Translations under genes and position numbers: made by a program
Assembly: GCA_022340775.1 (NCBI GenBank)
Contig: JAJDNH010000088.1
Coordinates: 13,464 to 77,463 of the forward strand
DNA: 64,000 nt
Direction of reading: 5' to 3'
Source: Acidobacteriota bacterium
GTDB lineage: Bacteria; Acidobacteriota; Thermoanaerobaculia; Thermoanaerobaculales; Sulfomarinibacteraceae
Notes under the pieces: generated by a model
What the model was told of the DNA's origin: nothing
Databases searched by the model: none
The model's input: the letters and a program-made list of their open reading frames with translations, nothing else
Shown here: piece after piece, positions 286 through 60,021 of the stretch
How the letters are laid out: every line of letters begins with the position of its first letter
Position numbering within the stretch: position 1 is the stretch's first letter

Positions 286-307
286 GGTCCACCGAGCGAG
301 CCGTCCC

Positions 308-411
308 GTAGGCGGGTGCTTCAGCGCCCGCCCCCAAGATCGTCGGGCGAGCCCGGTAAGACCTGGTCCCGCCGGAGGAGTCTGGGGGCGCGCCCTGAAG
401 GACGCGCCTAC
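308..411 (+). repeat. REP-doublet (REPIN-like) element, copy 1
   Basis: Left arm is GTAGGCGGGTGCTTCAGCGCCCGCC. The right arm reads GTAGGCGCGTCCTTCAGGGCGCGCC on the opposite strand. A ~50-nt spacer separates them. Near-identical copies lie at 7393, 9107, 14475 and 24273. Confidence 0.85.
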
Positions 412-450
412 CAACTCCTTTTTTTGGTGGCAGGGGGCGTCTCGCCCGCT

Positions 451-582
451 GGGGTGGGCGGGGGAGCGTTCCCCTTCTCCCGTCTCCCGTTTCCCTTCCC
501 GGTCGGGCGGGGGCACGTCTCGCGTCTTACGTCTCGCGTCTAGCGATCTCCGGGCGGGCGGGGATCTCCGTCGCTCCCTCCA
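451..582 (+). repeat. G-box/tandem-word cassette array (3 modules), preceded by conserved hairpin at 431-451
   Basis: GGGGTGGGCGGGGG is followed by a CCGTYTC-type word run. GGGCGGGGG is followed by a GTCTCGC/GTCTAGC word run. GGGCGGGCGGGG is followed by a CTCCGTC-type run. The same cassettes recur in other intergenic gaps. Confidence 0.8.
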
Positions 583-624
583 CCTGTATAGTGGACGCAG
601 CCACGGCATCCAGGGGAGGAGCGC

Positions 625-1914
625 ATCGCACACCTGACCGTACGATCGGCCTACCGCCGCCTGACCGACCGGATCAACCGGTTTCCGCAGGGCGCGCCGC
701 CCTCCCACCTGCTCTACCAGATCCTGGAGCTGCTCTTCTCCGAGGAGGAGGCGGAGCTGGTCTCGCTGCTGCCGATCCGCCCCTTCACCGTCTCTACCGC
801 GGCCCGGGCGTGGAAGAAGAACGAGGCGGAGGCGCAGGCTGTCCTCGACAACCTGGCGTCGAGGGGGATCCTGCTGGACATCGTTTCCGAGCGCACCGGT
901 ACCACCCGCTACGTGCTGCCGCCGCCGATGGCGGGGTTCTTCGAGTTTTCCATGATGCGGGTGCGGGACGACCTCGATCAGAAGCTGCTGTCCGAGCTCT
1001 ACTACCAGTACATCACGGTCGAGGACGACTTCATCAAGGCTCTTTTCACCAAAGGAGAAACCCAGCTGGGGAGGACCTTCGTCAACGAGAGGGCGCTCCC
1101 CGCGGAGCCGTCGCTGGAGGTACTCGACTACGAGCGGGCCACCCAGGTGATCCGCACCGCCTCCCACATCGGCGTCGGGGTCTGTTACTGCCGGCACAAG
1201 GCGCAGCACCTCGGAGAGGCCTGCGACGCCCCGATGAACATCTGCATGACCTTCAACGCCGTGGCCGCCTCCCTGACCCGCCACGGGGTCGCCCGCACCA
1301 TCGACCGCTCCGAGTGCATGGACCTGCTCGACCTGGCCCGCGATGAGAACCTGGTCCAGTTCGGCGAGAACGTGCGAGAGGGGGTGAGCTTCATCTGCAA
1401 CTGCTGCGGCTGCTGCTGCGAGGCGATGATCGCGGCGCGGCGGTTCGGCATGCTGCACCCGGTCCACACCACCAACTACCTGCCCGAGGTCGACACCGAG
1501 GCCTGTGCCGGCTGCGGCAAGTGCGCCGAGGTCTGTCCCGTCGAGGCCATGGGCACGGTGTCCGCCAACGACCCGCACAAGCCCAAGCGGAAGATGGCCC
1601 GTCTCGACACCGACATCTGCCTCGGCTGCGGCGTGTGCGTCCGCACCTGCCCGTCATCCGCCCTCAGGCTGGTGCCCCGAGCCCAACGGGTGCTGCCGCC
1701 GCTGAGCGGCACCCACAAGGCCGTGGTGATGGCGATCGAGAGAGGCAAGCTGCAGAACCTGATCTTCGACCACGGTGCCCTCGCCAGCCACCGCGCCATG
1801 GCGGCCATCCTCGGCGTGGTGCTGAAGCTGCCTCCCGTGAAACAGGCCCTCGCGTCCCGGCAGCTCCAGTCACGCTACCTGGAGCGCCTCATCGCCCGCT
1901 ACGACGACCACTGA
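625..1914 (+). CDS. 4Fe-4S dicluster domain protein with CNCCGCCC cysteine cluster; start codon uncertain
   Basis: The track ORF 913..1914 carries CAGCGKCAEVCP and CLGCGVCVRTCP ferredoxin motifs plus FICNCCGCCCEAM. The frame is open and protein-like back to 592 (AYRRLTDRINRFPQGAPPSHLLYQILELLFSEEEAELVSLLP) but has no ATG/GTG/TTG. SD GGGGAGGAG at 613-621 precedes ATC 625. GTG 913 is the first canonical start. Confidence 0.7.
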   Translation: MAHLTVRSAYRRLTDRINRFPQGAPPSHLLYQILELLFSEEEAELVSLLPIRPFTVSTAARAWKKNEAEAQAVLDNLASRGILLDIVSERTGTTRYVLPPPMAGFFEFSMMRVRDDLDQKLLSELYYQYITVEDDFIKALFTKGETQLGRTFVNERALPAEPSLEVLDYERATQVIRTASHIGVGVCYCRHKAQHLGEACDAPMNICMTFNAVAASLTRHGVARTIDRSECMDLLDLARDENLVQFGENVREGVSFICNCCGCCCEAMIAARRFGMLHPVHTTNYLPEVDTEACAGCGKCAEVCPVEAMGTVSANDPHKPKRKMARLDTDICLGCGVCVRTCPSSALRLVPRAQRVLPPLSGTHKAVVMAIERGKLQNLIFDHGALASHRAMAAILGVVLKLPPVKQALASRQLQSRYLERLIARYDDH

Positions 1915-1925
1915 GGCCGCGCCCA

Positions 1926-2050
1926 CCAACCCCCTTCTTTGGTGGCAGCGGGCGTCTCGCCCGCTGGTGTGGGTGGGGCACCGATGAAGCTGCTACCGCG
2001 GGGATTCGCGAGCCCCCCACCCGGGCAGGCGGGACGCCGCCCCCACCACG
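1926..2050 (+). repeat. Conserved hairpin element (1946-1966, CAGCGGGCG-TCT-CGCCCGCTG) plus degenerate G-/C-boxes
   Basis: CCAACCCCCTTCTTTGGTGGCAGCGGGCGTCTCGCCCGCTGGTGTGGGTGGGG matches the segments that follow the REP doublets at 412-460, 2604-2653, 9211-9262 and 14578-14628. Confidence 0.7.
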
Positions 2051-2078
2051 ATCAGGGGTCGCGAGTGAATGATGCGGG

Positions 2079-2318
2079 CTAGAGCCCTTCGATGAGTGCA
2101 TCCCGGCTCTCACCTTTGTGGGCAGCTACGGCGCGCAGCACGGCCGCCAATGTGCCGACACGGAGAGGATGATGGTCGGGTACCACAACGCGGTGGCAAC
2201 TTGGCTCGGAAGTCTCCAGGACCACGTGGCTCCCGACCTGGTGAATCCTGTGATACCCCCATCTCCGACAGAGATGGCGGATCAGTTCCTCGCCATCCAG
2301 ATTCCGCGGCAGCTTCAT
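2079..2318 (-). CDS. hicA: type II toxin HicA (mRNA interferase)
   Basis: 79 aa with LPRNLDGEELIRHLCRRWGYHRIHQVGSHVVLE, typical of the HicA/YcfA fold. It overlaps the upstream antitoxin gene by 4 nt. Confidence 0.8.
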   Translation of the reverse strand: MKLPRNLDGEELIRHLCRRWGYHRIHQVGSHVVLETSEPSCHRVVVPDHHPLRVGTLAAVLRAVAAHKGESRDALIEGL

Positions 2319-2527
2319 CCTACGGCGATCAGCTCGTCGCGCCTCAGGTGCAACCTGACGGCAGAAGGCTTCTCGTCATCGAAGAAGTAGGCACTGACGG
2401 CTTCGAGGACGCTGGCGCGAAGCTCATCCCAGGTGTCCCCCTGAGTGAAGATCGGCTCCGTGAGACACTCGGCCACGAAGCCGCCATCCACCTCCTGCAT
2501 GACATCGAACACCAGCTCACTCTTCAT
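2315..2527 (-). CDS. hicB: HicB-like antitoxin (short form, no obvious DNA-binding domain)
   Basis: 70 aa starting MKSELVFDVMQEVDGGFVAECLTEPIFTQGDTWDEL, which resembles the HicB/UPF0150 N-domain. It is coupled to hicA through an ATGA overlap. Confidence 0.7.
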   Translation of the reverse strand: MKSELVFDVMQEVDGGFVAECLTEPIFTQGDTWDELRASVLEAVSAYFFDDEKPSAVRLHLRRDELIAVG

Positions 2528-2533
2528 GAAGCC

Positions 2534-2567
2534 ATTGTAGGTGCAATGGCCGAGCTGGTCGAGCCAA
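2534..2567 (-). promoter_or_regulatory. Putative hicBA promoter with inverted repeat; possibly leaderless
   Basis: On the minus strand the sequence reads TCGACC-N17-TACAAT-GGCTTC-ATG. There is no SD before the ATG. CCATTG-N6-CAATGG overlaps the -10. Confidence 0.3.
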
Positions 2568-2575
2568 AGCGGCCC

Positions 2576-2603
2576 GGGGGCGCGCCCTGAAGGACGCGCC
2601 TAC
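2576..2603 (+). repeat. Solo right-arm REP (truncated REP doublet)
   Basis: GGGGGCGCGCCCTGAAGGACGCGCCTAC is identical to the right arm of the full elements. The left arm and spacer are missing and hicBA lies directly to the left. Confidence 0.75.
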
Positions 2604-2653
2604 CAACGCCATTCTTTGGTAGCAGCGGGCGTCCCGCCCGCTGGGGTGGGTGG

Positions 2654-2741
2654 GTACGTCTGCAGCGGCAAGACCGGTCATCCCGAGCACCCCAAAGTGT
2701 CATCCTGATGAGGGAGCGCAGCGACCGAAGAAGGATCTGGG
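2654..2741 (+). repeat. ~88-nt intergenic element E3, copy 1
   Basis: GTACGTCTGCAGCGGCAAGACCGGTCATCCCGAGCACCCCAAAGTGTCATCCTGATGAGGGAGCGCAGCGACCGAAGAAGGATCTGGG is nearly identical to 14629-14716. A diverged inverted partial copy lies at 24178-24240. Confidence 0.8.
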
Positions 2742-3030
2742 TGGGCGGGGGTCTCCGTCACCGGGTGGGCGGGGGAACCTCATCACCTAATCACTCAATC
2801 ACTTAATTACCGGGTGGGCGGGGGGAGCGTCCCCCGTCTCCCGTTTCCCGTCTTCCCTCCCGGGCGGGGGGGGCACGTCTCGCGTCTCGCGTCTCGCGTC
2901 TTGCGCTCTTCCGGGTGGCCGGGGCCTCCGTCACTTCATCACTCCGTCACTCCGTCACCGGGTGGGCGGGGGCACGTCTCGCGTCTTGCTTCTCGCGTCT
3001 AGCGATCTCCCCGGGCGGGCGGGGGGGCTG
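2742..3030 (+). repeat. G-box/tandem-word cassette array (about 7 modules)
   Basis: Successive CCGGGTGGGCGGGGG-like boxes are each followed by a cassette. The cassettes here are CTCCGTCAC, CCTCATCACCTAATCACTCAATCACTTAAT, CCCGTCTCCCGTTTCCCGTCTTCCC and GTCTCGCGTCTCGCGTCTCGCGTCTTGCG. Confidence 0.85.
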
Positions 3031-3070
3031 CCCCCACAACGGTCAGTGGAGCGCAAGTGAGTGACGCGGT

Positions 3071-3724
3071 CTACTCGTACCTGTGGAACAGCGATTGGTG
3101 CCTCAGCTCGATCATCTCCGGACGGCCCCCGGCCATGTAGACGCGGGTCACGCAGCACCCGAGCGAGGGCACGGGGCAGCTGCTGAGCTCCAGGCAGTCC
3201 CCTCCCACCATCCAAGAGGAGCGGTAGAGGTTGCGGAGCTGCCCGACGTCCATGTCGGTCAGAGGCCGACCGTCGACCTTCAACGGCAGCAGGGTCGCGA
3301 AGTGAGCGCGGGCGCCGGCGGCCATCAGCGGCATGCGCGGAGCGATCACCAGCTGCAACGGGATCACCACCGACGTGACCGCCCACTCGGCGCTGGGCTT
3401 GGTCTCCTGCTGACCCCGGTAGTCGGGATGCGTGAAAACGCCAAACCCGCGGTCCGGCCAGAAGAAGAACGTGTGACCGCCGTCCGCCTCCTGGACGGTC
3501 GCGGCCTTGCCGTACGCCGCCTCCCACGAGCTGAGAGGGTCGAGCACCCGCGGCGCGCCGCTCGGCCGTGAGTCCAGGAACGCCCTGCCGACGGCGCCGT
3601 GCCGGGCGAGAAGGCACGGCAGCAGCACGACGAACGCGCCGACGAGGAAGATAGCGATCACGACCCAGAGGACCTGCTTCCCGAACCCGCCGCGCCTGCC
3701 GGTCTCGCTTCGCTCTTCTTGCAT
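3071..3724 (-). CDS. hypothetical membrane-anchored protein
   Basis: Start is trimmed to ATG 3724, preceded by GGAGGAC. One N-terminal TM helix (VLWVVIAIFLVGAFVVLLPCLL) is present. No family recognised. Confidence 0.55.
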   Translation of the reverse strand: MQEERSETGRRGGFGKQVLWVVIAIFLVGAFVVLLPCLLARHGAVGRAFLDSRPSGAPRVLDPLSSWEAAYGKAATVQEADGGHTFFFWPDRGFGVFTHPDYRGQQETKPSAEWAVTSVVIPLQLVIAPRMPLMAAGARAHFATLLPLKVDGRPLTDMDVGQLRNLYRSSWMVGGDCLELSSCPVPSLGCCVTRVYMAGGRPEMIELRHQSLFHRYE

Positions 3725-3909
3725 CACGTCCTCCAATCCCCAACTCCCGCACTGCCCGGTGTCAACGAACGGTGGCCGCGGGGTACGCCTCGGCCGCCTG
3801 TGCGCCGACGGCAGGGCCCCGCAGGCCGAGCAGGAGTCCACCGCACTTGGAAGTCATATCCCGAGTATATCGCCGGCCGGCCTGGCCGCAAGGACGCTGA
3901 GACGGGGTC

Positions 3910-3955: not shown

Positions 3956-4357
3956 TTGGCACGACCGGAGAAGCTCAGAAAGGTCGGTTGGGACGGCGAG
4001 GTCAGCGGCTTCAAGCCGGTCGGTGTACCGGCCTCCGGGCTCCAGGTCGAGACCCTGCGTCTCGACGAGCTCGAGGCCCTTCGCCTCGCCGACATGGAGG
4101 GCCTCTACCAGGAAGCCGCCGCCGAGCAGATGGGAATCTCGCGGCAAACCTTCGCGCGCGTTCTCGGCCGTGCGCGATCAACCGTCGCCAGGGCCGTCGT
4201 CGAGGGCAAGCTCCTGGTGATCGGCGAAGGCCCGGTCGTCACCAGATCCGACGGCACGATCCCGTGCCCGGTTCACGGGATGGGCCGCAGACGGGGTCGT
4301 GGCTGCCGCTGTGGCAGCGGCCGCGGGCGGCACGGACACGGCGCGGACCGGCGCTGA
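3956..4357 (+). CDS. DUF134 (UPF0251) putative DNA-binding protein
   Basis: TTG start after GGGAGGG. The segment RLDELEALRLADMEGLYQEAAAEQMGISRQTFARVLGRARSTVARAV is a sigma-70 region-4-like HTH typical of DUF134. Confidence 0.75.
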   Translation: MARPEKLRKVGWDGEVSGFKPVGVPASGLQVETLRLDELEALRLADMEGLYQEAAAEQMGISRQTFARVLGRARSTVARAVVEGKLLVIGEGPVVTRSDGTIPCPVHGMGRRRGRGCRCGSGRGRHGHGADRR

Positions 4358-4374
4358 GAAAAGGAGGAACGACA

Positions 4375-4782
4375 ATGCCTGGAGGAGACAGAACCGGACC
4401 GAGGGGAACCGGACCGATGACGGGCTGGGGCCGCGGCTACTGCGGCGGCTCGGCGCCCGCGCGCGGCTTCGGAGGGGCCTACGGCGGCCGCGGCCGCGGG
4501 GCGGCCTGGGGCCGGGGCGGGGGCGGCGGCAGGGGCTGGCGTCACCGCTTCTGGGCCACCGGTGAGCCCGGCTGGGCCCGCGGCCGCTGGGGCTTCCCCG
4601 AGCTCATCGAAGACGAGCCGCCGCCGGCAACCGAGAAGCAGTACCTCGCCGAGCGCCGCCGGCTCCTCAGGTCCGAGCTGCAGGCCATCAAGATGCGGCT
4701 GAACGAGCTCGACGCCGCCGAGGCCGAGGGCCACGGAACAACCGGGCGCCAGGCGCCCCCCGACGAAGGTGAGCAGGAATGA
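4375..4782 (+). CDS. DUF5320 domain protein (Gly/Arg-rich N-terminus, C-terminal coiled coil)
   Basis: ATG 4375 follows AAGGAGGA. MPGGDRTGPRGTGPMTGWGRGYCGG and GRGWRHRFWATGEPGWARG match my recollection of DUF5320. Confidence 0.7.
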   Translation: MPGGDRTGPRGTGPMTGWGRGYCGGSAPARGFGGAYGGRGRGAAWGRGGGGGRGWRHRFWATGEPGWARGRWGFPELIEDEPPPATEKQYLAERRRLLRSELQAIKMRLNELDAAEAEGHGTTGRQAPPDEGEQE

Positions 4783-5141
4783 AGATCGTCCTGACGGCAA
4801 CCGGTGAGGTTCTGGACAGCCAACTCGATCCGCGTTTCGGGCGGGCACCCTGGTTCATCCTGGTCGACACGGACAGCGGCGACATACAGACGGTCGAGAA
4901 CTCCTCAGGAGTCGAGGCGGAGCAGGGCGCGGGCGTCCAGGCGGCCGAGGTCGTGTCTCGTCTCGGCGCCCAGTGCGTGGTCACCGGGCACTGCGGCCCG
5001 AGGGCGTTTCGCGCCCTACAGGCGGCGGGGATCGAGGTCTTCACCGGCGCGTCCGGAACCGTGGCCGAGGCCGTCGAGCAGCTCAAGGCCGGCGCGCTCG
5101 AGAAGGCGCACGGCCCCGACGTGGTGGGACACTGGGCTTGA
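4779..5141 (+). CDS. NifB/NifX-family (Nitro_FeMo-Co domain) cluster-binding protein
   Basis: MKIVLTATGEVLDSQLDPRFGRAPWFILVDTDSG and VVTGHCGPRAFRALQAAGIEVF. ATGA overlap with the upstream gene. Confidence 0.75.
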   Translation: MKIVLTATGEVLDSQLDPRFGRAPWFILVDTDSGDIQTVENSSGVEAEQGAGVQAAEVVSRLGAQCVVTGHCGPRAFRALQAAGIEVFTGASGTVAEAVEQLKAGALEKAHGPDVVGHWA

Positions 5142-6022
5142 GGGTCGCCATCGCCTCCGGCAAGGGCGGCACCGGCAAGACGACCGTGGCAGTCAACCTG
5201 GCCCTGAGCCTGCCGGGCCGGGTGCAGCTCCTCGACTGCGACGTCGAAGCGCCCAACGTCCACCTCTTCCTGCACCCCTCGGTCGAGATCAGCGAGCCGG
5301 CGGGAATCCCGGTGCCGGTCGTCGACCCGGAGCTCTGCAACAACTGCGGCGAGTGCAGCCGGCTCTGCCAGTACAACGCCATCGTCAGCCTGAGCACCGG
5401 CACTCTCGTCTTCCCCGAGCTGTGCCACGGCTGCGGGGGTTGCGCCCTGATCTGCCCCGAGCGCGCCATCACCGAGAAGCTGCGCCCGATCGGGGTCGTC
5501 GAGCAGGGGACGGCGCGAGGGTTGCGGACCGTGCACGGGTGCCTCAACGTCGGCGAGGCCCTGGTGCCGCCGCTCATCCGCCAGGTCAGGGCGAAGGCGG
5601 ACCCGGAGGCGATCGTCCTGATCGACGCGCCGCCCGGCACCTCGTGCCCGATGATCACCGCGGTTCGCGGCTGCGACTACGTCATCCTGGTCACCGAGCC
5701 GACCCCCTTCGGCCTCAACGACCTGGGGCTCGCGGTCGAGGCGGTGCGGGCGCTCGGCATCCCGTGCGGCATCGTCGTCAACCGCGTCGGCATCGGGGAC
5801 GGCCGCGTGCACGACTACTGCGCCGCCGAGAACCTCGAGATCCTGCTCGAGATCCCTGACGACCGCCGGGTTGCCGAGGCGTACGCCCGCGGCATCCCAA
5901 CGCTCGACGCTGTGCCGGAGCTGCGTTCCCGGTTCTTGCAGCTGGCGAGCCGCCTGCGGAACCGGCTGCCGCGAGCAGCCGATGCGGCTCTTCAAAAAGG
6001 AGGCGCGCGTGCCCACCTATGA
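5138..6022 (+). CDS. MinD/ParA-type P-loop ATPase with inserted 2x[4Fe-4S] ferredoxin domain
   Basis: TTG 5138 overlaps the upstream stop (TTGA). Motifs are IASGKGGTGKTT, CNNCGECSRLCQYNAI and CHGCGGCALICPERAI. Confidence 0.8.
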   Translation: MRVAIASGKGGTGKTTVAVNLALSLPGRVQLLDCDVEAPNVHLFLHPSVEISEPAGIPVPVVDPELCNNCGECSRLCQYNAIVSLSTGTLVFPELCHGCGGCALICPERAITEKLRPIGVVEQGTARGLRTVHGCLNVGEALVPPLIRQVRAKADPEAIVLIDAPPGTSCPMITAVRGCDYVILVTEPTPFGLNDLGLAVEAVRALGIPCGIVVNRVGIGDGRVHDYCAAENLEILLEIPDDRRVAEAYARGIPTLDAVPELRSRFLQLASRLRNRLPRAADAALQKGGARAHL

Positions 6023-6263
6023 GTACCTGTGCACCAAGTGCGGACAGCGGTTCGACCTCTTCCAGTCCATGTCCGCGCCGCCGGCTGAGAGCTGTCCGGA
6101 GTGCGGCGGACCGGTCGAGCGCCAGATCGGCGCCGGCGCCGCCATCCTGGTCAGGGGCGGAAGCCGCGAGACCCGCGGCCAACGGGCCGCGGCCTGCGAC
6201 CGCTCGACGCCCTGCTGCGGGCGCGACGAGCGCTGTGACGCCCCACCCTGCGGGGAGCGCTGA
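6009..6263 (+). CDS. FmdB-family zinc-ribbon protein (CxxC...CxxC)
   Basis: GTG 6009 follows AAGGAGG. PTYEYLCTKCGQRFDLFQSMSAPPAESCPECGG. It overlaps the upstream gene by 14 nt. Confidence 0.75.
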   Translation: MPTYEYLCTKCGQRFDLFQSMSAPPAESCPECGGPVERQIGAGAAILVRGGSRETRGQRAAACDRSTPCCGRDERCDAPPCGER

Positions 6264-7231
6264 TGGCGCCCCCGGCGGCCCCGCTGCCCCTGGTCGAGAG
6301 CCAGGCCGACGCCGCCCACGTCCCGGAGCTGGTGGTCATCAGCGGCAAGGGCGGCACCGGCAAGACCAGCGTCGTCGGCTCGTTCGCGGCGCTGGCTGAC
6401 AACCTGGTCCTGGCCGACTGCGACGTCGACGCCGCCGACCTCCACCTCGTCCTGGCACCCGAGATCCGCGAACGGAACCTCTTCGTCGGCGGCCACGAGG
6501 CCAGGGTCCGCGAGGCCGACTGCACGGCTTGCAGGGTGTGCCGCGAGGTCTGCCGGTTCGACGCCATCGGTTGTGATCCCGACACCGGGATCTGCACGGT
6601 CGACCCGATCGCGTGTGAAGGCTGCGGCGTCTGCGTCGAGCAGTGCCCGGAGCAGGCCATCGACTTCCCGGCCCGCACCTGCGGCGAGTGGTTCGTCTCC
6701 TCGACAGCCTCCGGCCCGATGGTCCACGCCCGGCTGGGAATCGCGGCCGAGAACTCCGGCAAGCTGGTCACCCTGGTGCGCCGCGAGGCCAAGCGCATCG
6801 CCGCCACCAGCGGCCGAGCGGGGATTCTGGTCGACGGCCCGCCCGGGGTCGGCTGTCCGGTCATCGCCGCACTCTCCGGCGCCACCCGGGTGCTCGTCGT
6901 CACCGAGCCCACCGTCTCGGGGGAGCACGACCTCGAGCGCGTTCTCCAGCTCGTCAAGCACTTCGGCATCCCGGCCGCGGTCTGCGTCAACCGCTGGGAC
7001 ATCCACCCCGAAGGAACCGCACGCATCGAGGACCGGGCCCGCGAGCACGGCGTGACCCTGTTCGCGAAGATCCGCTACGACACCGCCGTGACCTCGGCAC
7101 AGGTGCAGGGCAGGCCGGTCGTCGAGCTCGGCGGCCCGGCCGCCGACGACATCCGGGAGCTGTGGGAGCGGGTGGAAGCGTGGTGGGATGGAGGGGAACC
7201 CCCGCCTACCCAACCGGAGGTGAGAAAGTAA
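6263..7231 (+). CDS. MinD/ParA-type P-loop ATPase with 2x[4Fe-4S] ferredoxin domain (second paralog)
   Basis: ISGKGGTGKTSV, CTACRVCREVCRFDAI and CEGCGVCVEQCPEQAI. TGATG overlap with fmdB. The last codons and stop lie inside a repeat cassette. Confidence 0.8.
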   Translation: MAPPAAPLPLVESQADAAHVPELVVISGKGGTGKTSVVGSFAALADNLVLADCDVDAADLHLVLAPEIRERNLFVGGHEARVREADCTACRVCREVCRFDAIGCDPDTGICTVDPIACEGCGVCVEQCPEQAIDFPARTCGEWFVSSTASGPMVHARLGIAAENSGKLVTLVRREAKRIAATSGRAGILVDGPPGVGCPVIAALSGATRVLVVTEPTVSGEHDLERVLQLVKHFGIPAAVCVNRWDIHPEGTARIEDRAREHGVTLFAKIRYDTAVTSAQVQGRPVVELGGPAADDIRELWERVEAWWDGGEPPPTQPEVRK

Positions 7232-7312
7232 GGAAGTGAGAAAGTGAGGAGGTCCCTCCCGCCCACCCGGGGGAATCGTAAGACGCGAGACGTGCCCCCA
7301 CCCGCCCGGGGG
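7215..7312 (-). repeat. G-box/word cassettes, inverted orientation
   Basis: GGAGGTGAGAAAGTAAGGAAGTGAGAAAGTGAGGAGG is the reverse of the CTCACC-type words. It is followed by CCCGCCCACCC and GACGCGAGACG (reverse of GTCTCGC words) and CCCACCCGCCC. Confidence 0.75.
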
Positions 7313-7392
7313 ACTTAGCGACAGCGCGCTCCAAAGACAGGCTGCGCTCGTACGGCCGTGCCAGGTGCAGAGGCTCAGCTACATGAGGCCCC

Positions 7393-7496
7393 GTAGGCGG
7401 GTGCTTCAGCGCCCGCCCCCGAGATCCTCGGACGAGCCCGGTGACACCTGGTCCGGCTGGAGAAGCCTGGGGGCGCGCCCTGAAGGACGCGCCTAC
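7393..7496 (+). repeat. REP-doublet (REPIN-like) element, copy 2
   Basis: Same arms as 308-411; spacer variant GAGATCCTCGGACGAGCCCGGTGACACCTGGTCCGGCTGGAGAAGCCT. Confidence 0.85.
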
Positions 7497-7529
7497 GTCC
7501 GGCTACGGCGGCCGCCACGGGGTCACTCA

Positions 7530-7600
7530 TCCCCGCCCGCTGGGGCAGTCGGGCGTTTCCCGTTTCCCGTTTCCCGTCTTCCTTCCCGGCCGGGCGGGTG
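7530..7600 (+). repeat. G-box/word cassette (CGTTTCC run)
   Basis: CCCGCCCGCTGGGGCAGTCGGGCGTTTCCCGTTTCCCGTTTCCCGTCTTCCTTCCCGGCCGGGCGGGTGA. Confidence 0.7.
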
Positions 7601-9106: not shown

Positions 9107-9210
9107 GTAGGCGGGTGTTTCGGCGCCCGCCCCCGACATCCTCGGGCGAGCTCGGTGACAGCTGGTCCCGCTGGAGAAGCCTGGGGGCGCACCCTGAAGG
9201 ACGCGCCTAC
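9107..9210 (+). repeat. REP-doublet (REPIN-like) element, copy 3
   Basis: The left-arm loop variant is TTTCGG instead of CTTCAG, with the stem intact. The right-arm stem carries a G to A change. Confidence 0.85.
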
Positions 9211-9395
9211 GCCAACTCTCTTCCGTGCCGGCAGCGGGCCTCCCGCCCGCTGGGCCGGGCGGGTTGTCGCTTCCCGTTTCTTCGGGTGGGCGGGCGGGAA
9301 ATTCTCACCTTCTGACTTCCTCACCTTCTCACCTCCTGCCGACTGGGCGGGCGGGCGCACGTCTCGCGTCTAGCGTCTCGCGTCTAGCGATCCCC
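9211..9395 (+). repeat. Hairpin (9232-9252) plus G-box/word cassette array
   Basis: CAGCGGGCCTCCCGCCCGCTG is followed by G-boxes with CCCGTTTC, TTCTCACCTTCTGACTTCCTCACCTTCTCACCTCC and GTCTCGCGTCTAGCGTCTCGCGTCTAGCG cassettes. Confidence 0.8.
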
Positions 9396-9551
9396 GGCAT
9401 CCACGGCCGCTCTCCACCGTCACCCGTTTGGGTGATGCAGACCAGCCCGCTTCGGCCCGACCTTGTCGAGGTCGTCGCGTTCGACTCACTCCCGGCCGGC
9501 CAACCGGCCGGGGTAACGGCCAACCACCTCTCGTAGGAAGGAGAGTGCACG

Positions 9552-14474: not shown

Positions 14475-14577
14475 GTAGGCGGGTGCTTCAGCGCCCGCCC
14501 CCACATCATCGGGCGAGCCCGGTAACACCTGGTCCCGCTGGAGAAGCCTGGGGGCGCACCCTGAAGGATGCGCCTAC
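14475..14577 (+). repeat. REP-doublet (REPIN-like) element, copy 4
   Basis: The right-arm stem carries a compensatory pair (GGCGCA...TGCGCC). A 1-nt deletion in the spacer is present relative to copy 2. Confidence 0.85.
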
Positions 14578-14628
14578 ACGACTCCGCTCCGTGGTGGCAG
14601 CGGGCGTCTCGCCCGCTGGGGCGGGCGG

Positions 14629-14716
14629 GTAGGTCTGCAGTGGCAAGGCCGGTCATCCCGGGCGCCCCAGAGTGTCATCCTGATGAGGGAGCGCAGCGAC
14701 CGAAGAAGGATCTGGG
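14629..14716 (+). repeat. ~88-nt intergenic element E3, copy 2
   Basis: Near-identical to 2654-2741. It is preceded by the hairpin at 14598-14618 (CAGCGGGCG-TCT-CGCCCGCTG). Confidence 0.8.
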
Positions 14717-14896
14717 CGGGCGGGGGCTCGTTTCCCTTTTCACGTTTCCCTTCCCGGGCGGGCGGGTGGTTGCCTCCGTCACTCCGTCACCGGCTGGGCG
14801 GGGGAGCGTTTCCCGTTTCCCGTCTCCCGTTTCCCTTCCTGGGCGGCTGGGGGCCGTCTCGCGTCTAGCTTCTAGCGTCTAGCGATCTCCCCGGGG
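14717..14896 (+). repeat. G-box/tandem-word cassette array (4 modules)
   Basis: Cassettes in order: CGTTTCCC, CTCCGTCACTCCGTCAC, CGTTTCCCGTTTCCCGTCTCCCGTTTCCC, GTCTCGCGTCTAGCTTCTAGCGTCTAGCG. Confidence 0.85.
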
Positions 14897-15777: not shown

Positions 15778-15850
15778 CCATCTCACGTTCTCACCTCCTG
15801 CCGCCCGGGCGGGGGCACGTCTCGCGTCTAGCTTCTCGCGTCTTGCGAGC
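15778..15850 (+). repeat. G-box/word cassette between convergent genes
   Basis: TTCTCACCTCC, then GGGCGGGGGCAC and GTCTCGCGTCTAGCTTCTCGCGTCTTGCG. It contains the stop codon of the minus-strand gene. Confidence 0.75.
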
Positions 15851-21500: not shown

Positions 21501-21619
21501 GGCGGCGGGGGCGGGCGGGGGCATGGCTCGCGTCTGGCGTCGTGCGAGCCTCCCGGTTGGGCGGGGGATCTCCTCACCCCTCACTCCTGGCTCCTCACCT
21601 CCTCACCTCCTCACCTCCC
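21501..21619 (+). repeat. G-box/word cassette array (CTCACCTC run)
   Basis: GGCGGCGGGGGCGGGCGGGGG, then GGGCGGGGGATCTCCTCACCCCTCACTCCTGGCTCCTCACCTCCTCACCTCCTCACCTCC. Confidence 0.75.
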
Positions 21620-21683
21620 GGCTGTGCAGCCGGCCTTCTCTGCCGTATATTGGTGAGGCACAGACACGAAAGGACGGTGTCCC

Positions 21684-23150
21684 ATGAAGCGGATCTGCGT
21701 CGCCGTCGTCGTCCTCCTCGCGGGGGCTCTCACCGGCTGTCTGGCCTACAGCCCGGGTCCGTACGAGTCGGCCTCGGCGCCGCCTCCCGGCTACGACAAC
21801 AGCTACCTCCAGGGCTCGCCGCGGGACGAGGTCGGCTTCTTCTACGACGACCTGTCGCCGTACGGCAACTGGGTTCTGACCGCGGAGTACGGCTGGGTCT
21901 GGTACCCGCGCAACCCGGGCGCCGGCTGGCGCCCGTACACCAACGGCCGCTGGGTGGACACCGACTACGGCTGGACCTGGGTGTCGTTCGAGCCGTACGG
22001 GTGGGCAACCTTCCACTACGGCCGCTGGGCGTACGATTCGCGCCACGGCTGGATCTGGGTGCCGGGCACGATCTGGGGCCCCGCCTGGGTCTCCTGGCAG
22101 TACGGAGGAGGCTACGTCGGGTGGGCGCCGCTGCCGCCGTCGGTCGGCTTCGAGGTCGGCGTCGGCTTGCGGCTCGGCGGCCTCAGCCTGGCCACCCGCA
22201 TCCAGCCCGACTCCTACTGCTTCGTGCCGGAGCATTCGTTCCTCCAGCCCCGCATCTCCGGGTACCTGGTGCCGCGGGCCCGCAACGTCACGATCATCCA
22301 CAACACCACCAACATCACCCACTACGGTTGGACCCAGAACCGGGTGGTGAACCGCGGCGTCGACGTGCGACACATCGAGCGGGCGACCAAGCGGCGCGTG
22401 GAGCGGTTCCGGGTCCAGGAGGGGACGCGGGAGTCGCGGACGTCGGTCCATGGGTCCGATGTCCGCTTCTACCGGCCCGCCAAGGACAGGCTCGACACGG
22501 TCCGCATCCGGCCGCGCGGCGAGACGCCGCCGCCACCGCAGCACGCCCAGCCCCCGGCGCAGCATCGGAGGCAGCAGCCGCCCCCGGTCGCACCAGGGGT
22601 GCAGCGGACACAGCCTGCTCCCAGGCAGATCGAGAAGCGCGACCGGCGCGAGCAGGAGCAGCTCCGCAAGTCCCAGGACGAGGAGAGGCAGCGTCTCGAG
22701 CGGCAGCGCCAGCAGGAGCAGGAGAGGGCGCGCGCTCAGGCCGAACGCGACCGGGCCGAGCAGCGCCAACGGGAAGAGCGCGTCAGGCAACAGCAGGAGC
22801 AGCAGCGTCAGCAGCAGGACCGCGCCAGGCAAGAGCAGGAGCATCGCCAGCAGCAGGAGCGCGCCAGGCAACAGCAGGAGCATCGCCAGCAGCAGGAGCG
22901 CGCGAGACAGCAGGAAGAGCAGCGTCGGCAACAGGAGCGGGCGAGGCAGCAAGAGGAGCAACGCAAGCAGCAGCAGGAGAGGGCGCGGCCGGGCACCACG
23001 CGCCGGGCCGTTCCGGTGAGACCGGCAGCCCGGACGACACCGGGCGCCCGCGGAAAGCCGGCCCCGCGAACCACGCCGACGCCGACGCCCAACGCCAAGC
23101 AGAAGAAGAAGGGCAAGGAGAGGCCCCGGGGCCGGGCGCAGGAGCAGTAG
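21684..23150 (+). CDS. lipoprotein with Trp/Tyr-rich YGW-type repeats and a Q/E/R-rich low-complexity tail
   Basis: Lipobox LTGC. YGNWVLTAEYGWVWYP, GRWVDTDYGWTWVS and YGRWAYDSRHGWIWVPG. The tail carries (RARQQQEHRQQQE)-like repeats. Confidence 0.75.
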   Translation: MKRICVAVVVLLAGALTGCLAYSPGPYESASAPPPGYDNSYLQGSPRDEVGFFYDDLSPYGNWVLTAEYGWVWYPRNPGAGWRPYTNGRWVDTDYGWTWVSFEPYGWATFHYGRWAYDSRHGWIWVPGTIWGPAWVSWQYGGGYVGWAPLPPSVGFEVGVGLRLGGLSLATRIQPDSYCFVPEHSFLQPRISGYLVPRARNVTIIHNTTNITHYGWTQNRVVNRGVDVRHIERATKRRVERFRVQEGTRESRTSVHGSDVRFYRPAKDRLDTVRIRPRGETPPPPQHAQPPAQHRRQQPPPVAPGVQRTQPAPRQIEKRDRREQEQLRKSQDEERQRLERQRQQEQERARAQAERDRAEQRQREERVRQQQEQQRQQQDRARQEQEHRQQQERARQQQEHRQQQERARQQEEQRRQQERARQQEEQRKQQQERARPGTTRRAVPVRPAARTTPGARGKPAPRTTPTPTPNAKQKKKGKERPRGRAQEQ

Positions 23151-24272: not shown

Positions 24273-24376
24273 GTAGGCGCGTCCTTCAGGGCGCGCCCCC
24301 GGGCTTCTTCAACGGGACCAGGTGTCACCGGGCTCGCCCGACGACCTTGGGGGCGGGCGCTGAAGCACCCGCCTAC
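24273..24376 (-). repeat. REP-doublet (REPIN-like) element, copy 5, inverted
   Basis: Reverse complement of the consensus: it starts GTAGGCGCGTCCTTCAGGGCGCGCC and ends GGCGGGCGCTGAAGCACCCGCCTAC. Confidence 0.85.
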
Positions 24377-24460
24377 GGGACCTTCAGAAGCCCCGCCTTC
24401 GCACGCGGCACGCCCGATGGAGCGCATCATTCTCTGCAGCGCGCTGCACCCGTGTCTCTT

Positions 24461-24602
24461 GGGTGGATGGGAGTGACCTCCTCACCTTCTCACTTTCTCA
24501 CCTGCTCACCTCCTGGATGGGCGGGGGAGCGTCTCCCGTTTCCCGTCTTCCCGGGTGGGCGGGGGTCCGTCTCGCGTCTTGCGTCTTACGTCTTGCTTCT
24601 TG
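24461..24602 (+). repeat. G-box/word cassette array (3 modules)
   Basis: CTCACC-type, CCCGTTTCCCGTCTTC and GTCTCGCGTCTTGCGTCTTACGTCTTGC cassettes. It overlaps the 3' end of the HDAC-like gene. Confidence 0.8.
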
Positions 24603-36112: not shown

Positions 36113-36221
36113 GGCAGATCCGAGCGCAGCGGCCCCTCGGGGCGGGAAGACCGGATCGAGGTCCTCCTCGAGACCGGGCTGACCGCCCCCGAGGGGTGCG
36201 GCCGCAGGCCGCGGATCTGCC
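36113..36221. other. 109-nt long imperfect palindrome in a repeat-free 480-nt leader
   Basis: GGCAGATCCG (36113-36122) pairs with CGGATCTGCC (36212-36221). Inner pairs are CCCCTCGGGG/CCCCGAGGGG, with an apical TCGAGG-TCCT-CCTCGA. Confidence 0.4.
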
Positions 36222-36361
36222 GTACAGGCAGGCGTCACGACGGAACCGGAGAGGGCTCAGGCAGGGATCATGATTCCGATGTGCACTGGTAGAGTTGGAC
36301 AGCACCGGCCGGCGTGCGAGGCCACGCCTCCGCCCGGCCAGCAAGTTCGAGGGGGATACCG

Positions 36362-39478: not shown

Positions 39479-39867
39479 TGCGGACTGCCTTTGGGTGGTG
39501 TCCGCAGCCCCGGCGGCCGGACGTCTGCCCCACAGATGCCCGTCGTCACCTGCCCAAAACGGGAAGCACGGGGAGGACTCTCTGGGGCTCCGGCGGCCGC
39601 GCGGTCATAGGGTGACCGCACGCCTCGTGTCTCCGGCGGGAGCAACGTCTCGAGAGCGGATGAACGACTCCCCGGCTCCCGCCGGAGAACCCTCGGGCCG
39701 CCTCCTTCAATCGTGGAGCCGATACTCCCGTCCCCAAGGGCCGAGATTGCCCCCCTTGACGTTTCTCTCCAGCGCTTACCTCTCGTCATGGCCCTTCAGA
39801 GAAACATCAAGGACCGCACGTCCGTTTGAACGCACCCTTCTCCGAGGCGCACTGCGGGCACCTTCTC

Positions 39868-40342
39868 TGGGTGGGCAGGGGGCGTCTGGCGTCTGGCGTC
39901 TTCCGTTTCCCGTCTCCCGTTTCCCGTCTTCCCTCCCGGGCGGACGGTGGTCTCCGTCACTCCATCACTCCATCATTCCGTCACTCCGTCACTTGCCCGG
40001 GTGGGCGGGGGCTCGTCTCGCGTCTTGCGTCTCGCGTCTCGCTTCCTCGGCGGGTGGGCGGGGGTTCGTCTCGCGTCTTGCGTCTCGCGTCTCGCTTCCC
40101 GGGTAGGTGGGGGCACGTTTCGCGCCTCCCGTCTCCCGTCTTCCCTCCCGGGCGGGCGGTGGTCTCCGTCACTCCGTCACTTGCCCGGGTGGGCGGGGGT
40201 TCGTCTCGCGTCTTGCGTCTCGCGTCTCGCTTCCCGGGTGGGTGGGGGCACGTTTCGCGCCTCCCGCCTCCCGTCTTCCCTCCCGGGCGGGCGGTGGTCT
40301 CCGTCACTCCATCACTCCATCATTCCGTCACTCCGTCACTTG
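39868..40342 (+). repeat. Largest G-box/word cassette array (9 modules, ~137-nt higher-order period)
   Basis: Modules cycle through a GTCTCGC cassette, a CCCGTCTC cassette and a CTCCGTCA cassette, each led by CCGGGYGGGCGGKGG. Segments 40048-40183 and 40184-40342 are near-duplicates. Confidence 0.9.
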
Positions 40343-47267: not shown

Positions 47268-47406
47268 CCCCCGCAGCGCGCTGCGCCCACATTCTCCGGC
47301 TGGGCGGGGAACTCCGTTACCCCGTCACTCCGTTACTGCGTCACTCCGTCACCGGGTGGGCGGGGGAACCTCATCACCTAATCACTCAATTACTTAATCA
47401 CTTCCC
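47268..47406 (+). repeat. Palindrome GCAGCGCGCTGC plus two G-box/word cassettes between convergent genes
   Basis: CCCGCAGCGCGCTGCGCCCACATTCTCC, then CTCCGTTACCCCGTCACTCCGTTACTGCGTCACTCCGTCA and CCTCATCACCTAATCACTCAATTACTTAATCAC cassettes. Confidence 0.8.
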
Positions 47407-51841: not shown

Positions 51842-51963
51842 GCGCAAGACGCAAGACCGAAGACGCAAGACGAAGCGAAGAACGGCCTTTGCGACTCAAC
51901 CGCCCGGACGTCTGCTCAGGGTGGGCGGGGATCTCCGTCACTCCGTCACCGGGTGGGTGGGAG
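51842..51963. repeat. Mixed-orientation cassettes in a divergent promoter region
   Basis: GCAAGACGCAAGACCGAAGACGCAAGACGAAGC is the reverse of the GTCTTGC words. It is followed by the forward GGGTGGGCGGGGATCTCCGTCACTCCGTCACCGGGTGGGTGGG. Confidence 0.75.
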
Positions 51964-51976
51964 GCAAGGCTTCCCC

Positions 51977-52027
51977 TTGACAGCCCCCCGGGGCCCGCCG
52001 CATACTGATATTCGAACGAACGTTCGA
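51977..52027 (+). promoter_or_regulatory. Promoter plus 16-bp palindromic operator upstream of tetR
   Basis: TTGACA (51977-51982), N18, CATACT (52001-52006). TCGAACG-AA-CGTTCGA lies at 52012-52027, about 20 nt before the tetR ATG. Confidence 0.5.
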
Positions 52028-52046: not shown

Positions 52047-52676
52047 ATGGCCGTCGAACGCAGCGCAAGGAACACCGGCTACGACGAAAAGCTGGAGCAC
52101 GTGCTGCGCGCCGGGGCACGGGTGATCGCGCGCGAAGGGTACGGCCAGGCAACGATCCGCCAGGTGGCGCGCGAGGCCAACATGAGCCTGGCCGGGCTCT
52201 ACCACTACTTCGCCTCGAAGGAGGAGCTGCTGTTCCAGATCCAGTTCCACACCTTCGACGCCATTGTGGAGGAGCTCGAGCGCAAGCTGGAGGGCGTGGA
52301 GGAGCCGGACGAGCGGCTCCGGGTGATGATCGAGAACCACCTCGAGCACTTCCTGGCCCGCATGAACGAGCTCAAGGTGTGCGCACACGAGCTGGGCTCG
52401 CTGCACGGCGACTACTACGAGCGGGTCGGGACGGTGCGGCGGAGGTACTTCGGGATCACGCTCGAGACGGTGAAGTCGATCGCCGCCGCGGCCGGCGGGT
52501 CGAAGATCGATGCCCGGCTGGCGACCCTGTACCTGTTCGGGATGCTGAACTGGATCTACATGTGGTACCCGGAAGAGGACGGCGTCGGCGGCGGCAGGCT
52601 CGCCGACCAGATGCTGGCACTGTTCCTGGACGGCTACCTGCCGCGGGCCGGCGGCCCGAAGAGAAACGGAGGTTGA
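52047..52676 (+). CDS. TetR/AcrR-family transcriptional regulator
   Basis: The N-terminal HTH reads GYGQATIRQVAREANMSLAGLYHYFASKEELL. It ends 4 nt before the reductase genes. Confidence 0.9.
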   Translation: MAVERSARNTGYDEKLEHVLRAGARVIAREGYGQATIRQVAREANMSLAGLYHYFASKEELLFQIQFHTFDAIVEELERKLEGVEEPDERLRVMIENHLEHFLARMNELKVCAHELGSLHGDYYERVGTVRRRYFGITLETVKSIAAAAGGSKIDARLATLYLFGMLNWIYMWYPEEDGVGGGRLADQMLALFLDGYLPRAGGPKRNGG

Positions 52677-52680
52677 GGTC

Positions 52681-53820: not shown

Positions 53821-53837
53821 TCGGGATGGAGGACACG

Positions 53838-55151: not shown

Positions 55152-55177
55152 CGGCTCGACGAAAAGGGGGTACACCC

Positions 55178-55963: not shown

Positions 55964-55965
55964 CC

Positions 55966-56838: not shown

Positions 56839-56839
56839 G

Positions 56840-57121
56840 ATGCTGGCGAACTACGGCTACACCGACGGCTCAGGGGAGTATTTCATCACCGTTGACACTG
56901 ACAAATGCGTCGAGTGCGAGGGTCGTCCCTGCGCCGGCGCCTGTCCCGCCGGCGTGATCGAGATCATCACCGACGATTACGACGACCAGGTGTGCGCGGT
57001 GCGCGACGAGCACCGCAAGCAGATCAAGTACTCGTGCGCGCCGTGCAAGCCGGCCTCCGGCTGGAAGACGCTGCCCTGTACGGACGCCTGTCCGCACGAT
57101 GCGCTGACGCACTCGTGGTAG
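56840..57121 (+). CDS. ferredoxin-like protein with two atypically spaced Cys clusters
   Basis: CVECEGRPCAGACP and CAPCKPASGWKTLPCTDACP. The ATG follows the upstream stop after a single spacer base. Confidence 0.7.
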   Translation: MLANYGYTDGSGEYFITVDTDKCVECEGRPCAGACPAGVIEIITDDYDDQVCAVRDEHRKQIKYSCAPCKPASGWKTLPCTDACPHDALTHSW

Positions 57122-57172
57122 CGGGCCTGGCAGAACCTCGTGACGCATGGGAATGGCTGAGCGGAGGCGCTG

Positions 57173-59686: not shown

Positions 59687-59730
59687 CCTCATCGGAGCCT
59701 GGAGCTACAATCGTGGTCGGAGGTGAGTTG

Positions 59731-59964: not shown

Positions 59965-60021
59965 GAGAATGTCTGGGCCCGGTTCCGGGCGGCGGAAAAC
60001 GGGCAGGGAGGTAAGCGTCTC

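Follow-up and report, generated by a model that had tools for sequence, protein, structure and literature searches.

The Acidobacteriota are abundant and poorly studied, and little is known about their non-coding DNA. Among the modular intergenic repeats described in other bacteria, the BOX elements of Streptococcus pneumoniae combine a fixed boxA-(boxB)n-boxC order with a stable fold, and the mycobacterial interspersed repetitive unit (MIRU) arrays consist of one repeated unit. For bacterial interspersed mosaic elements (BIMEs), a model of formation has been proposed in which enzymes of the HUH/RAYT type (RAYT, REP-associated tyrosine transposase; REP, repetitive extragenic palindrome) cleave and rejoin the DNA. 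Heptanucleotide intergenic repeats are the most abundant class of long simple sequence repeats (LSSRs) in many bacteria (PMC4692102, PMC4679880), and the GGGNATC repeats of Xanthomonas and Nostoc are of the G-quadruplex (G4) type with a preference for four units (PMC4692102). The current analysis concerns a set of intergenic arrays in a 64,000-nt stretch of a metagenome-assembled genome (MAG) of an Acidobacteriota bacterium (Thermoanaerobaculia, Sulfomarinibacteraceae; GenBank assembly GCA_022340775.1, contig JAJDNH010000088.1, positions 13,464 to 77,463 of the forward strand). This whole stretch is hereafter the window, and its own coordinates are used throughout. In each array a 15-nt G-rich box, CCGGGYGGGYGGGGG (the G-box), alternates with cassettes of short pyrimidine-rich words. 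We tentatively interpret the arrays as BIME-like mosaic repeats, joined to heptamer-type repeats, that form a lineage-specific system within the Acidobacteriota (Thermoanaerobaculia and relatives), and we place the probability of this reading at about 0.42.

The building unit of the arrays measures approximately 48 nt and comprises the G-box, a 3-nt junction and four 7- or 8-nt pyrimidine-rich words in fixed order; the junction depends on the cassette type, as had been proposed in an initial annotation of this DNA. The target region, array 2 (2737-3025, + strand), carries seven G-boxes; the cassettes between them are, in order, C, D, B, A, C and A, with 9-40 nt of 7- or 8-nt words from box to box. 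At three or fewer mismatches the G-box has 50 matches in the window versus 15.9 +/- 3.8 in dinucleotide shuffles, none of the 100 shuffles reaching 50, and the pattern of a box followed by an A or B cassette occurs 11 times where 0 are expected. Our census counts 46 boxes in 14 arrays of 1-9 units; the initial annotation had estimated on the order of fifty boxes by eye. Box-to-box spacing ranges from 24 to 69 nt with a median of 48, the inter-box segments being 9-54 nt long, and at each of the two variable positions of the G-box a pyrimidine is found in 44 of the 46 boxes. All boxes of one array share the same strand and direct orientation (12 arrays on the + strand and 2 on the - strand), and an array normally consists of n cassettes between n+1 boxes, with a terminal box closing it. 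The G-box itself lacks self-complementarity and is hence not palindromic. Tandem word runs were sought with Tandem Repeats Finder (TRF), which reports period-7 and period-8 runs of 2-6 copies at all loci named in the initial annotation. Each of those 16 loci does contain sequence of the family, although three need qualification: locus 1926 is a leader hairpin plus a degenerate box alone, without a cassette, locus 9211 is the leader of an array starting at 9255, and locus 51842 is an inverted A-like word run.

The placement of the arrays was judged against a gene map of the window based on G+C content at third codon positions (GC3). All 14 lie outside the genes of this map, with only array ends touching stop codons, and arrays are present in approximately 12 of the 17 intergenic gaps of at least 150 nt; the array-free gaps are mostly divergent promoter regions. 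The view that such modules fill most larger intergenic gaps is therefore sustained, and the architecture is real, modular and non-coding. The tightly packed gene runs 3956-7231 and 52047-62121 are free of arrays, which indicates that the arrays mark operon boundaries. A strict orientation rule relative to genes was considered and rejected, since the proportion of arrays co-oriented with the upstream gene (about 70%) is indistinguishable from the background gene-strand bias and about six arrays are antisense to both neighbours.

The tandem words themselves are a known phenomenon, that of heptanucleotide intergenic repeats (PMC4692102, PMC4679880). Their arrangement into cassettes is highly regular. 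The A modules (n=11, from 10 window loci and one related locus) read GTCTCGC-GTCTWRC-KTCTYRC-GTCTNGC at constant length and are usually followed by GATCTCC, and the D modules (n=9, from the window, a related species and six other contigs) share a single word order, CCTMATCA-CYTAATCA-CTCAATCA-CTTAATCA. Five or more unit families (A to E) reappear across many loci and related genomes, always with the same word order, and the cassette types are more numerous than the five or so described earlier. Cassettes had also been portrayed as open-ended (word)n runs, whereas they prove to be four-word units of fixed length and conserved word order. Because length and word order are fixed at so many loci, the modules are copied whole rather than grown in place as microsatellites, each one being a dispersed repeat of some 48 nt whose periodicity is internal.

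Another key feature of the arrays is their polarity. Each array runs outward, with its G strand reading 5' to 3', from one of two kinds of start: a GC-rich REP-like hairpin, or the 3' end of a larger element, termed Z. The REP of the window consists of GTAG plus a palindrome, GTAGGCGSGTSCTTCAGSGCSCGCC, and is present in 11 copies versus 0 expected, arranged as five inverted doublets (REPINs) with a constant spacing of 79 nt and one singlet. Every one of these REPs lies 5' of an array, with respect to the G strand, within about 160 nt. The REPINs, to which no strand is assigned, occupy 308-411 (5' of array 1), 7393-7496 (arrays 3 and 4 diverge from either side of it, over 7199-7600), 9107-9210 (5' of array 5), 14475-14577 (5' of array 6) and 24273-24376 (5' of array 9); the singlet is at 2579-2603 (- strand), 5' of array 2. 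Between REPIN and first box stands a further hairpin, GGCAGCGGGCGTCTCGCCCGCTGG, which abuts or immediately precedes a G-box at all five sites where it occurs; this leader hairpin, GGCAGSGGGCGTCTCGCCCGCTGG, is located at 429-452 (+ strand), with copies at 1944-1967, 2621-2644, 9230-9253 and 14596-14619. Elsewhere the array is preceded by CATTCTCTGGAGCGCGCTGCG (the Y leader) or by a hairpin of the form GCGATTCGC..GCGAATCGC. The Y leader, CATTCTCTGSAGCGCGCTGC, is the 3'-terminal motif of Z and stands alone before an array at 24428-24448 (+ strand), with copies at 63289-63309 and about 47269-47295; a copy on the - strand (7340-7310) likewise precedes an array. In other lineages (loci L161 and L086; L-numbers denote loci from other contigs or genomes), a doublet of TTGTGG hairpins (ATTGTGG) occupies the same position and is followed by the G-box and words. 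The statement that the arrays are neither REP nor BIME is correct insofar as the G-box is non-palindromic and does not alternate in orientation, yet it is misleading, as the arrays are anchored to REP-like hairpins and all 11 REPs are 5' of an array. The presence of GTAG REP and REPIN copies also implies that a RAYT-type transposase is encoded somewhere in the genome.

In two cases, at 2656-2736 (+ strand) and at about 14632-14711, an additional H element (..GTCATCCTGATGAGGGAGCGCAGCGACCGAAGAAGGATC) of about 81 nt is found, which sits between two boxes in the manner of a long cassette. It was also noted at L092, L015 and L148 19671-19705, and related 'GTCATTCTGAGGAGCGCCAGCGACGAAGAATC' copies precede arrays in other contigs. 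A hammerhead ribozyme (CUGAUGAG...CGAA) was considered for the H element and rejected, as it has GAAG where GAAA is required, a poor stem II and no match to the Rfam hammerhead models.

To what extent the arrays are distributed beyond the window was assessed with two surveys. The species-level survey queried one genome per GTDB species with the box plus A/B-cassette pattern and yielded one other carrier, the uncultured Thermoanaerobaculia MAG GCA_964552395.1 (hereafter the related species), with 13 loci on 12 contigs; the remaining 14 matches are single chance matches, with L026 as a possible exception. This genome is syntenic with the window at 84-94% nucleotide identity. The metagenome survey, for which the query was two boxes 18-48 nt apart and all counts are lower bounds, identified at least 8 contigs with A-E cassettes, JGI and ENA contigs among them, and at least about 20 contigs with the same grammar and other words, for example ATCTCGC, ATCTTGC, GATCTTG, ACTTTCG, CCCCGAA, GCTGTCN and NCCTCAC. 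The 733-kb contig L161, which is ERZ25039514:contig_8543 and comes from another lineage, has at least 10 modules with T-rich words in 21.7 kb. The named homologues of a gene on one different-word contig are from Holophagae, 'Acidobacteria' and Candidatus Sulfomarinibacteraceae, which hints weakly that the wider family with other words is acidobacterial. In a more distant relative, whose acs protein has 69% amino-acid identity, no box arrays were found in 13.8 kb.

This distribution also bears upon the concern that the arrays might be collapsed or chimeric repeats created during assembly, which is conceivable for repetitive sequence in a metagenome-assembled genome. The probability of such an artefact is next to nil: the related species, assembled independently, matches the array at 7199-7309 at nearly every base, 10 independent assemblies of that species (JGI, Logan, NCBI), made from different samples and with different pipelines, carry identical arrays, and the same families recur in many JGI and ENA contigs. 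Two findings could have overturned the initial description, confinement of the modules to this contig and identity with a repeat family already described. The same unit families are instead present in the related Thermoanaerobaculia species and in many metagenome contigs. A scan of the whole window at gathering threshold produced 0 matches to 4227 Rfam models, permissive scans of arrays, leaders and Z returned noise only (E of at least 2), and sequence-string and topic searches of the searchable literature revealed no description of G-box-punctuated cassette arrays. It should be noted that the 10 assemblies are 99.97% identical overall and nearly clonal, and their identical arrays are for this reason little informative about hypervariability within the population.

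Comparison with the related species reveals three ways in which the arrays change, namely slippage of words, duplication of blocks and replacement of whole module sets. Word slippage is evident in the B cassette at 7550, which differs by one heptamer (a 7-nt indel), and block duplication at 40051-40316, where a three-module block of 135 nt stands in tandem at 97-98% identity. Replacement is most extensive upstream of acs: the 959-nt gap of the window holds Z and nine modules, whereas the 183-nt gap of the related species holds a hairpin, a box, a short A cassette, a box and an E cassette, and the stop codon and promoter on either side are conserved despite the replaced modules. At 51.9 kb, an inverted A run and box-C-box in the window correspond to an H leader, box-E and box-D in the related species. 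Two further sites differ, one downstream of the first gene and one beside the gene at 3071-3841, and these coincide with differences in gene content. Such differences (window 290-3046 versus L129 6257-7697, and 44097-47408 versus L148 13660-15168) include an Fer4 gene, a 3-kb NuoF/GltD-like gene and a probable toxin-antitoxin pair, and they begin and end in repeat-filled intergenic DNA, which places arrays and REPINs at rearrangement breakpoints. A different situation exists for the block at 7199-7529 (array, Y leader and REPIN), which has only 3 substitutions in 331 nt (99.1% identity to the related species), versus 87-92% identity at third codon positions in its flanks and 84% in the downstream promoter/5' untranslated region (UTR). 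At this single locus, the block may be either constrained or recently exchanged between lineages. A separate observation from the related species is that at L129 6380-6640, orthologous to the site of array 1, three tandem copies of a C-rich unit of about 94 nt stand right after the leader hairpin and one G-box.

Given the occurrence of word slippage, one could ask whether the arrays are simply ordinary heptamer microsatellites, of the class known from Xanthomonas, Nostoc, Burkholderia and Beggiatoaceae, which grow in place by polymerase slippage with the G-box as an incidental flank. Heptanucleotide intergenic repeats are certainly common in bacteria (PMC4692102, PMC4679880), the length difference from the related species is precisely one heptamer, and B cassettes read on the opposite strand, as (GGGARAC)4, resemble the GGGNATC G4 repeats, for which four units are preferred (PMC4692102). 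Slippage alone nevertheless fails to account for non-identical words of fixed length and order at many loci in several genomes, junctions specific to each type, or a 15-nt box conserved across lineages at the flank of every cassette, and the arrays are identical in the 10 assemblies, even if these are nearly clonal. We consequently regard pure slippage as a rather unlikely account of the system as a whole.

Element Z (39496-39866, + strand) is a structured, multi-copy, non-coding element of approximately 390 nt, directly followed by array 10. Searches with nhmmer found many Z copies in related loci, the 3' end of which is the Y leader (..TTCTC..G.GCGC.CTGCG..TTCT), and in 14 of 19 copies this end leads directly into a box array. 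Open reading frames run through both the arrays and Z, but a coding function was rejected because neither carries a GC3 signal and the Z copies differ by 1-nt indels. Of 58 pairs predicted for the fold of Z, 23 have changes on both sides, as compared to 12.5 +/- 2.1 in shuffles (0/500 reach 23) and 5-8 compensatory pairs in slid controls; cells are paired in 91% of cases in Z and about 40% in the slid controls. G-U pairs predominate at several positions, which favors the G-box strand as the folded strand. A permissive scan gave no Rfam match for Z, and no prior description was found in Rfam or the searchable literature. Z is therefore presented here as a candidate for a new structured RNA or a mobile non-autonomous element. 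Its sub-families differ in their middle parts, and copies elsewhere include L007 1636-2037, L013 7159-7550, L015 6304-6728 and 379-688, L021 2048-2372, L025 21-433 and 5285-5846, and L028 1561-1903. The starts of A and B cassettes (GGGGG-NNC-GTCT..) resemble one arm of the Z 5' hairpin, a possible hint to the origin of the modules.

Several further observations concern the surroundings of Z. One copy (L015, about 6730-6890, - strand) begins right after the 3' CCA end of a tRNA gene with a good sigma-70-like promoter. Two Z fragments in L100 enclose a complete IS66-family element (1505-3841, - strand; orf1, orf2 and the DDE transposase) that is inserted beside a G-box array; as a source of a mobilising enzyme, this element looks incidental. 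The 5' region of Z at 39533-39556 is 79% complementary over 24 nt to 39872-39895, which comprises the first G-box and the first words after Z. A long-range pairing between these segments was rejected, since by eye it is apparently not conserved in other copies.

A polar layout of leader followed by array, n cassettes within n+1 repeats, inter-box segments of 9-54 nt and a structured RNA candidate immediately 5' of an array all bring to mind an RNA-guided system, in which Z would be a scaffold RNA (of the omega-RNA or tracrRNA kind) and the array a set of repeats and spacers or guides. We regard such an identity as barely credible. The repeat is a mere 15 nt, the would-be spacers are low-complexity cassettes drawn from about five shared families, and most arrays lack a full-length Z. 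No cas, tnpB or iscB gene was detected in a Pfam scan of the proteins of all called window genes (about 50), and Rfam contains no CRISPR-repeat (clustered regularly interspaced short palindromic repeat) or omega-RNA model that matches above noise; the best CRISPR direct-repeat match falls on a leader hairpin with E = 2. The earlier assertion that the arrays are not CRISPR thus holds on the grounds of repeat length, shared cassettes and absent cas genes. A broader version of the RNA hypothesis would view Z and the arrays as a new RNA-linked repeat system, in which structured RNAs of about 390 nt carry modular box-plus-cassette 3' tails. A dedicated enzyme might add or exchange these tails, by a templated or an HUH-mediated route, and the tails might work in trans, either sponging up proteins or guiding RNA to the hundreds of genomic G-boxes, REP-led arrays being decayed forms or alternative entry points. 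This scenario seems to us quite improbable.

Under the BIME-like interpretation, the G-box would be the crucial element. As the sole constant element, flanking every cassette, it could serve as the joint for adding, exchanging and duplicating units. Joining could presumably proceed by either of two routes: template switching or unequal recombination on the short homology of the box, or cleavage and rejoining at the box by an HUH/RAYT-type single-strand-DNA enzyme, such as would be expected to mobilise the adjoining REP hairpins. The 12:2 strand bias of the arrays fits a replication-strand-dependent mechanism, yet it is indistinguishable from the 72% gene-strand bias of the window. Several results weigh against this interpretation. 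Firstly, no RAYT, transposase or reverse transcriptase was found among the roughly 50 window genes with Pfam, which makes the proposed enzyme hypothetical. Secondly, the G-box is non-palindromic and the units are direct, unlike the REP units of true BIMEs, and neither target-site duplications nor terminal inverted repeats were seen at the arrays. Thirdly, the association of Z with arrays carries an ascertainment bias, since the presence of boxes was the criterion for fetching the loci. Finally, the 99% identity at 7199-7529, a hint of constraint or of recent exchange, is not expected under a purely selfish model, and the arrays antisense to both neighbour genes weaken any role that needs co-transcription with the upstream gene.

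The arrays are probably transcribed as 3' tails, because they occur only at operon boundaries and on the strand of the Z fold, and canonical terminator-like sites show no enrichment (4 found versus 5.2 expected in the 39.3-52.2 kb scanned). If they are functional, a buffer or insulator at transcript 3' ends would be the likely role, although this is the weakest step of the proposed mechanism. The most serious rival to a BIME-like system starts from the same point and holds that the arrays are the 3' part of Z RNAs or 3' UTRs, in which the words are binding sites for OB-fold proteins (cold-shock proteins, S1 or the N-terminal domain of Rho) and the boxes are punctuation, thereby controlling termination, antitermination or RNA stability. 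Much of the evidence is compatible with such a role: the Z fold is strand-specific, supported by covariation and located on the G-box strand, with arrays directly after it; word classes recur across lineages (RTCTYGC, NNNNTCAC, ACTTTYG); cassettes have a fixed number of four words; and one array is more conserved than synonymous sites. Folding of 2737-3040 on both strands gave z = -0.45 and +0.24, and the possibility that the arrays are themselves folded RNA was rejected, as they have no structure beyond composition, which likewise suits a tail meant for binding. Among potential binders, Bacillus subtilis CspB recognizes pyrimidine-rich heptamers with the consensus GTCTTTG/T (PMC1904285), and cold-shock proteins, S1 and CsrA have been proposed for the TAACTGA heptamer repeats (PMC4679880). 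Despite these parallels, regulation of individual loci is hard to square with the wholly different module content at orthologous sites, about six arrays run antisense to the genes on either side, the words resemble the CspB consensus only loosely and the transcription is itself predicted. On balance, we consider protein-binding tails unlikely, if still a serious contender.

The initial annotation had favored a physical explanation, namely that G4/i-motif-prone and triplex-prone segments alternate as non-B DNA. The boxes are 65% G, comparable G-tract strings are found in G4 aptamers, and the B cassettes, as (GGGARAC)4 on the strand opposite the box, provide six canonical G4 motifs, A, C, D and E cassettes providing none; B cassettes are also the only ones with four or more G3 tracts at a 7-nt period, again on that opposite strand. 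In other respects the proposal is mostly unsupported. With three G-runs and 11 G, the box is one run short of a canonical quadruplex and would not form a three-tetrad intramolecular G4, and on the G strand the arrays contain only 3 canonical G4 motifs, leaving 43 of the 46 boxes without a four-run motif. The description of the words as almost purine-free was overstated as well, since the cassettes are 26% purine (74% pyrimidine) and their longest stretches of pyrimidine alone measure 5 nt at the median and 13 nt at most, too short and too interrupted for H-DNA. That the three-run design is conserved across lineages argues for recognition of the box by sequence rather than for G4 formation. We judge structural DNA to be very improbable as the basis of the arrays.

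Two other identities were examined and discarded. The boxes are not promoters, since their resemblance to sigma-54 and extracytoplasmic function sigma factor sites is accompanied by the wrong spacing (by eye), and a sigma-70 scan gives only the promoter of the downstream gene after array 12. Miniature inverted-repeat transposable elements were rejected because no terminal inverted repeats bound the arrays and no target-site duplications were seen at their ends.

The individual arrays illustrate the range of compositions. Array 1 (450-564, + strand) has three boxes with cassettes B and A, followed by a C-like remnant. Array 3 (7199-7309, - strand) has three boxes with a short A and an E cassette and points away from the REPIN, its last box overlapping the final codons of the gene at 6263-7231, and array 4 (7530-7600, + strand), the one that differs by a heptamer from the related species, consists of a degenerate box, a B cassette and a box. 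On the + strand follow array 5 (9255-9400; three boxes, short B, E and A cassettes), array 6 (14712-14890; four boxes, cassettes B', C, B and A), array 7 (15778-15835; E fragment, box and A cassette, between convergent genes), array 8 (21507-21620; two boxes, A-like and E cassettes, with a hairpin AGCGATTCGC..GCGAACCG in front), array 9 (24459-24602; three boxes, cassettes E, B and A), array 10 (39867-40340; nine boxes including the duplicated 135-nt block) and array 11 (47296-47403; two boxes, cassettes C and D). In array 12 (51843-51963, + strand), the inverted A-like word run (51843-51875) precedes a box, a C cassette and a box (51917-51963). By eye, some arrays end just upstream of promoter-like hexamers; one such case was confirmed by the sigma-70 scan, with a promoter-like match at 51977-52006, 14 nt beyond the end of array 12. 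Array 13 (62084-62165, - strand) comprises an A fragment, a box, a C cassette and a degenerate box, and array 14 (63283-63510, + strand) opens with a Y leader and B-like words, after which come four boxes with cassettes A, D and B.

The genes of the window are ordinary chromosomal ones, encoding Fe-S proteins, cytochrome bd, an ammonium transporter, acyl-CoA metabolism and two-component regulators, and a scan of the window found no tRNA or tmRNA. Two repeats of other kinds were encountered. A 39-nt tandem repeat (22758-22989; 5.5 copies, 81% matches) lies within a DUF6600 gene (21684-23150) and encodes a Gln/Glu/Arg-rich repeat region. A dispersed intergenic element, GGCAGATCCGAGCGCAGCGGCCCCTCGGGGC ... 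GCGGCCGCAGGCCGCGGATCTGCCG, is a long inverted repeat unrelated to the G-box and is present at 36120-36260 of the window, at L148 13700-13740 and in L021 upstream of Z.

Several implications can be drawn from these features. The array system occupies most of the inter-operon space of the window and is common to several uncultured lineages, each with its own words. It ties together REP/REPIN hairpins, heptamer microsatellites and a structured multi-copy RNA-like element, which are usually handled apart. With the G-box as a clear candidate joint and an explicit polarity, it offers a tractable case for how mosaic clusters such as BIMEs form, and it may also show how transcript 3' ends are set in a high-GC genome where terminator-like sites were not enriched in the 13 kb scanned. 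From a practical standpoint, the arrays are a hazard for the assembly of MAGs and for CRISPR and small RNA predictors, and they lie at the breakpoints of gene-content differences.

When compared to known systems, the arrays share with BOX elements and MIRU arrays a modular intergenic organization with few sub-unit types and a variable number of modules of about 45-53 bp in direct orientation, and to our knowledge neither of these alternates a common G-box with word cassettes of different kinds. CRISPR arrays offer a similar layout of leader followed by repeat-spacer-repeat, with n inserts between n+1 repeats, but their repeats are about 23-50 nt rather than 15 nt, and the present inserts are recurrent and of low complexity, in many small arrays per 64 kb with no cas genes nearby. 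A closer parallel can be found in the heptanucleotide LSSRs, such as the cyanobacterial short tandemly repeated repetitive (STRR) sequences, the GGGNATC repeats (PMC4692102) and the TAACTGA repeats of Beggiatoaceae (PMC4679880). Like these, the words described here are tandem, 7 nt long, intergenic, often located right after stop codons and preferentially present in about four units, and the B cassettes are canonical G4 sequences on the opposite strand, as is GGGNATC. Unlike LSSRs, they form cassettes of fixed, ordered and non-identical words, several word families coexist in one array, every cassette is bracketed by a 15-nt G-box and the arrays are seeded by a hairpin leader. Together with these LSSRs, the REP, REPIN and BIME repeats of Enterobacteria and Pseudomonas provide the closest match. 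The constant unit of a BIME is a REP, defined as an imperfect palindrome of about 20-40 nt with GT(A/G)G, whereas the G-box is no palindrome; furthermore, our units are all direct rather than alternating in orientation, their linkers are four tandem 7-8-nt words and the arrays run in a polar fashion away from a hairpin. Despite these distinctions, both systems form intergenic clusters at operon ends and between convergent genes, both alternate a constant short unit with a small repertoire of linkers (here, at least five recurrent cassette families, all intergenic), both vary in cluster size (1-9 units in the present arrays), and true GTAG-palindrome REPs in inverted doublets, as in REPINs, are physically joined to the arrays described here.

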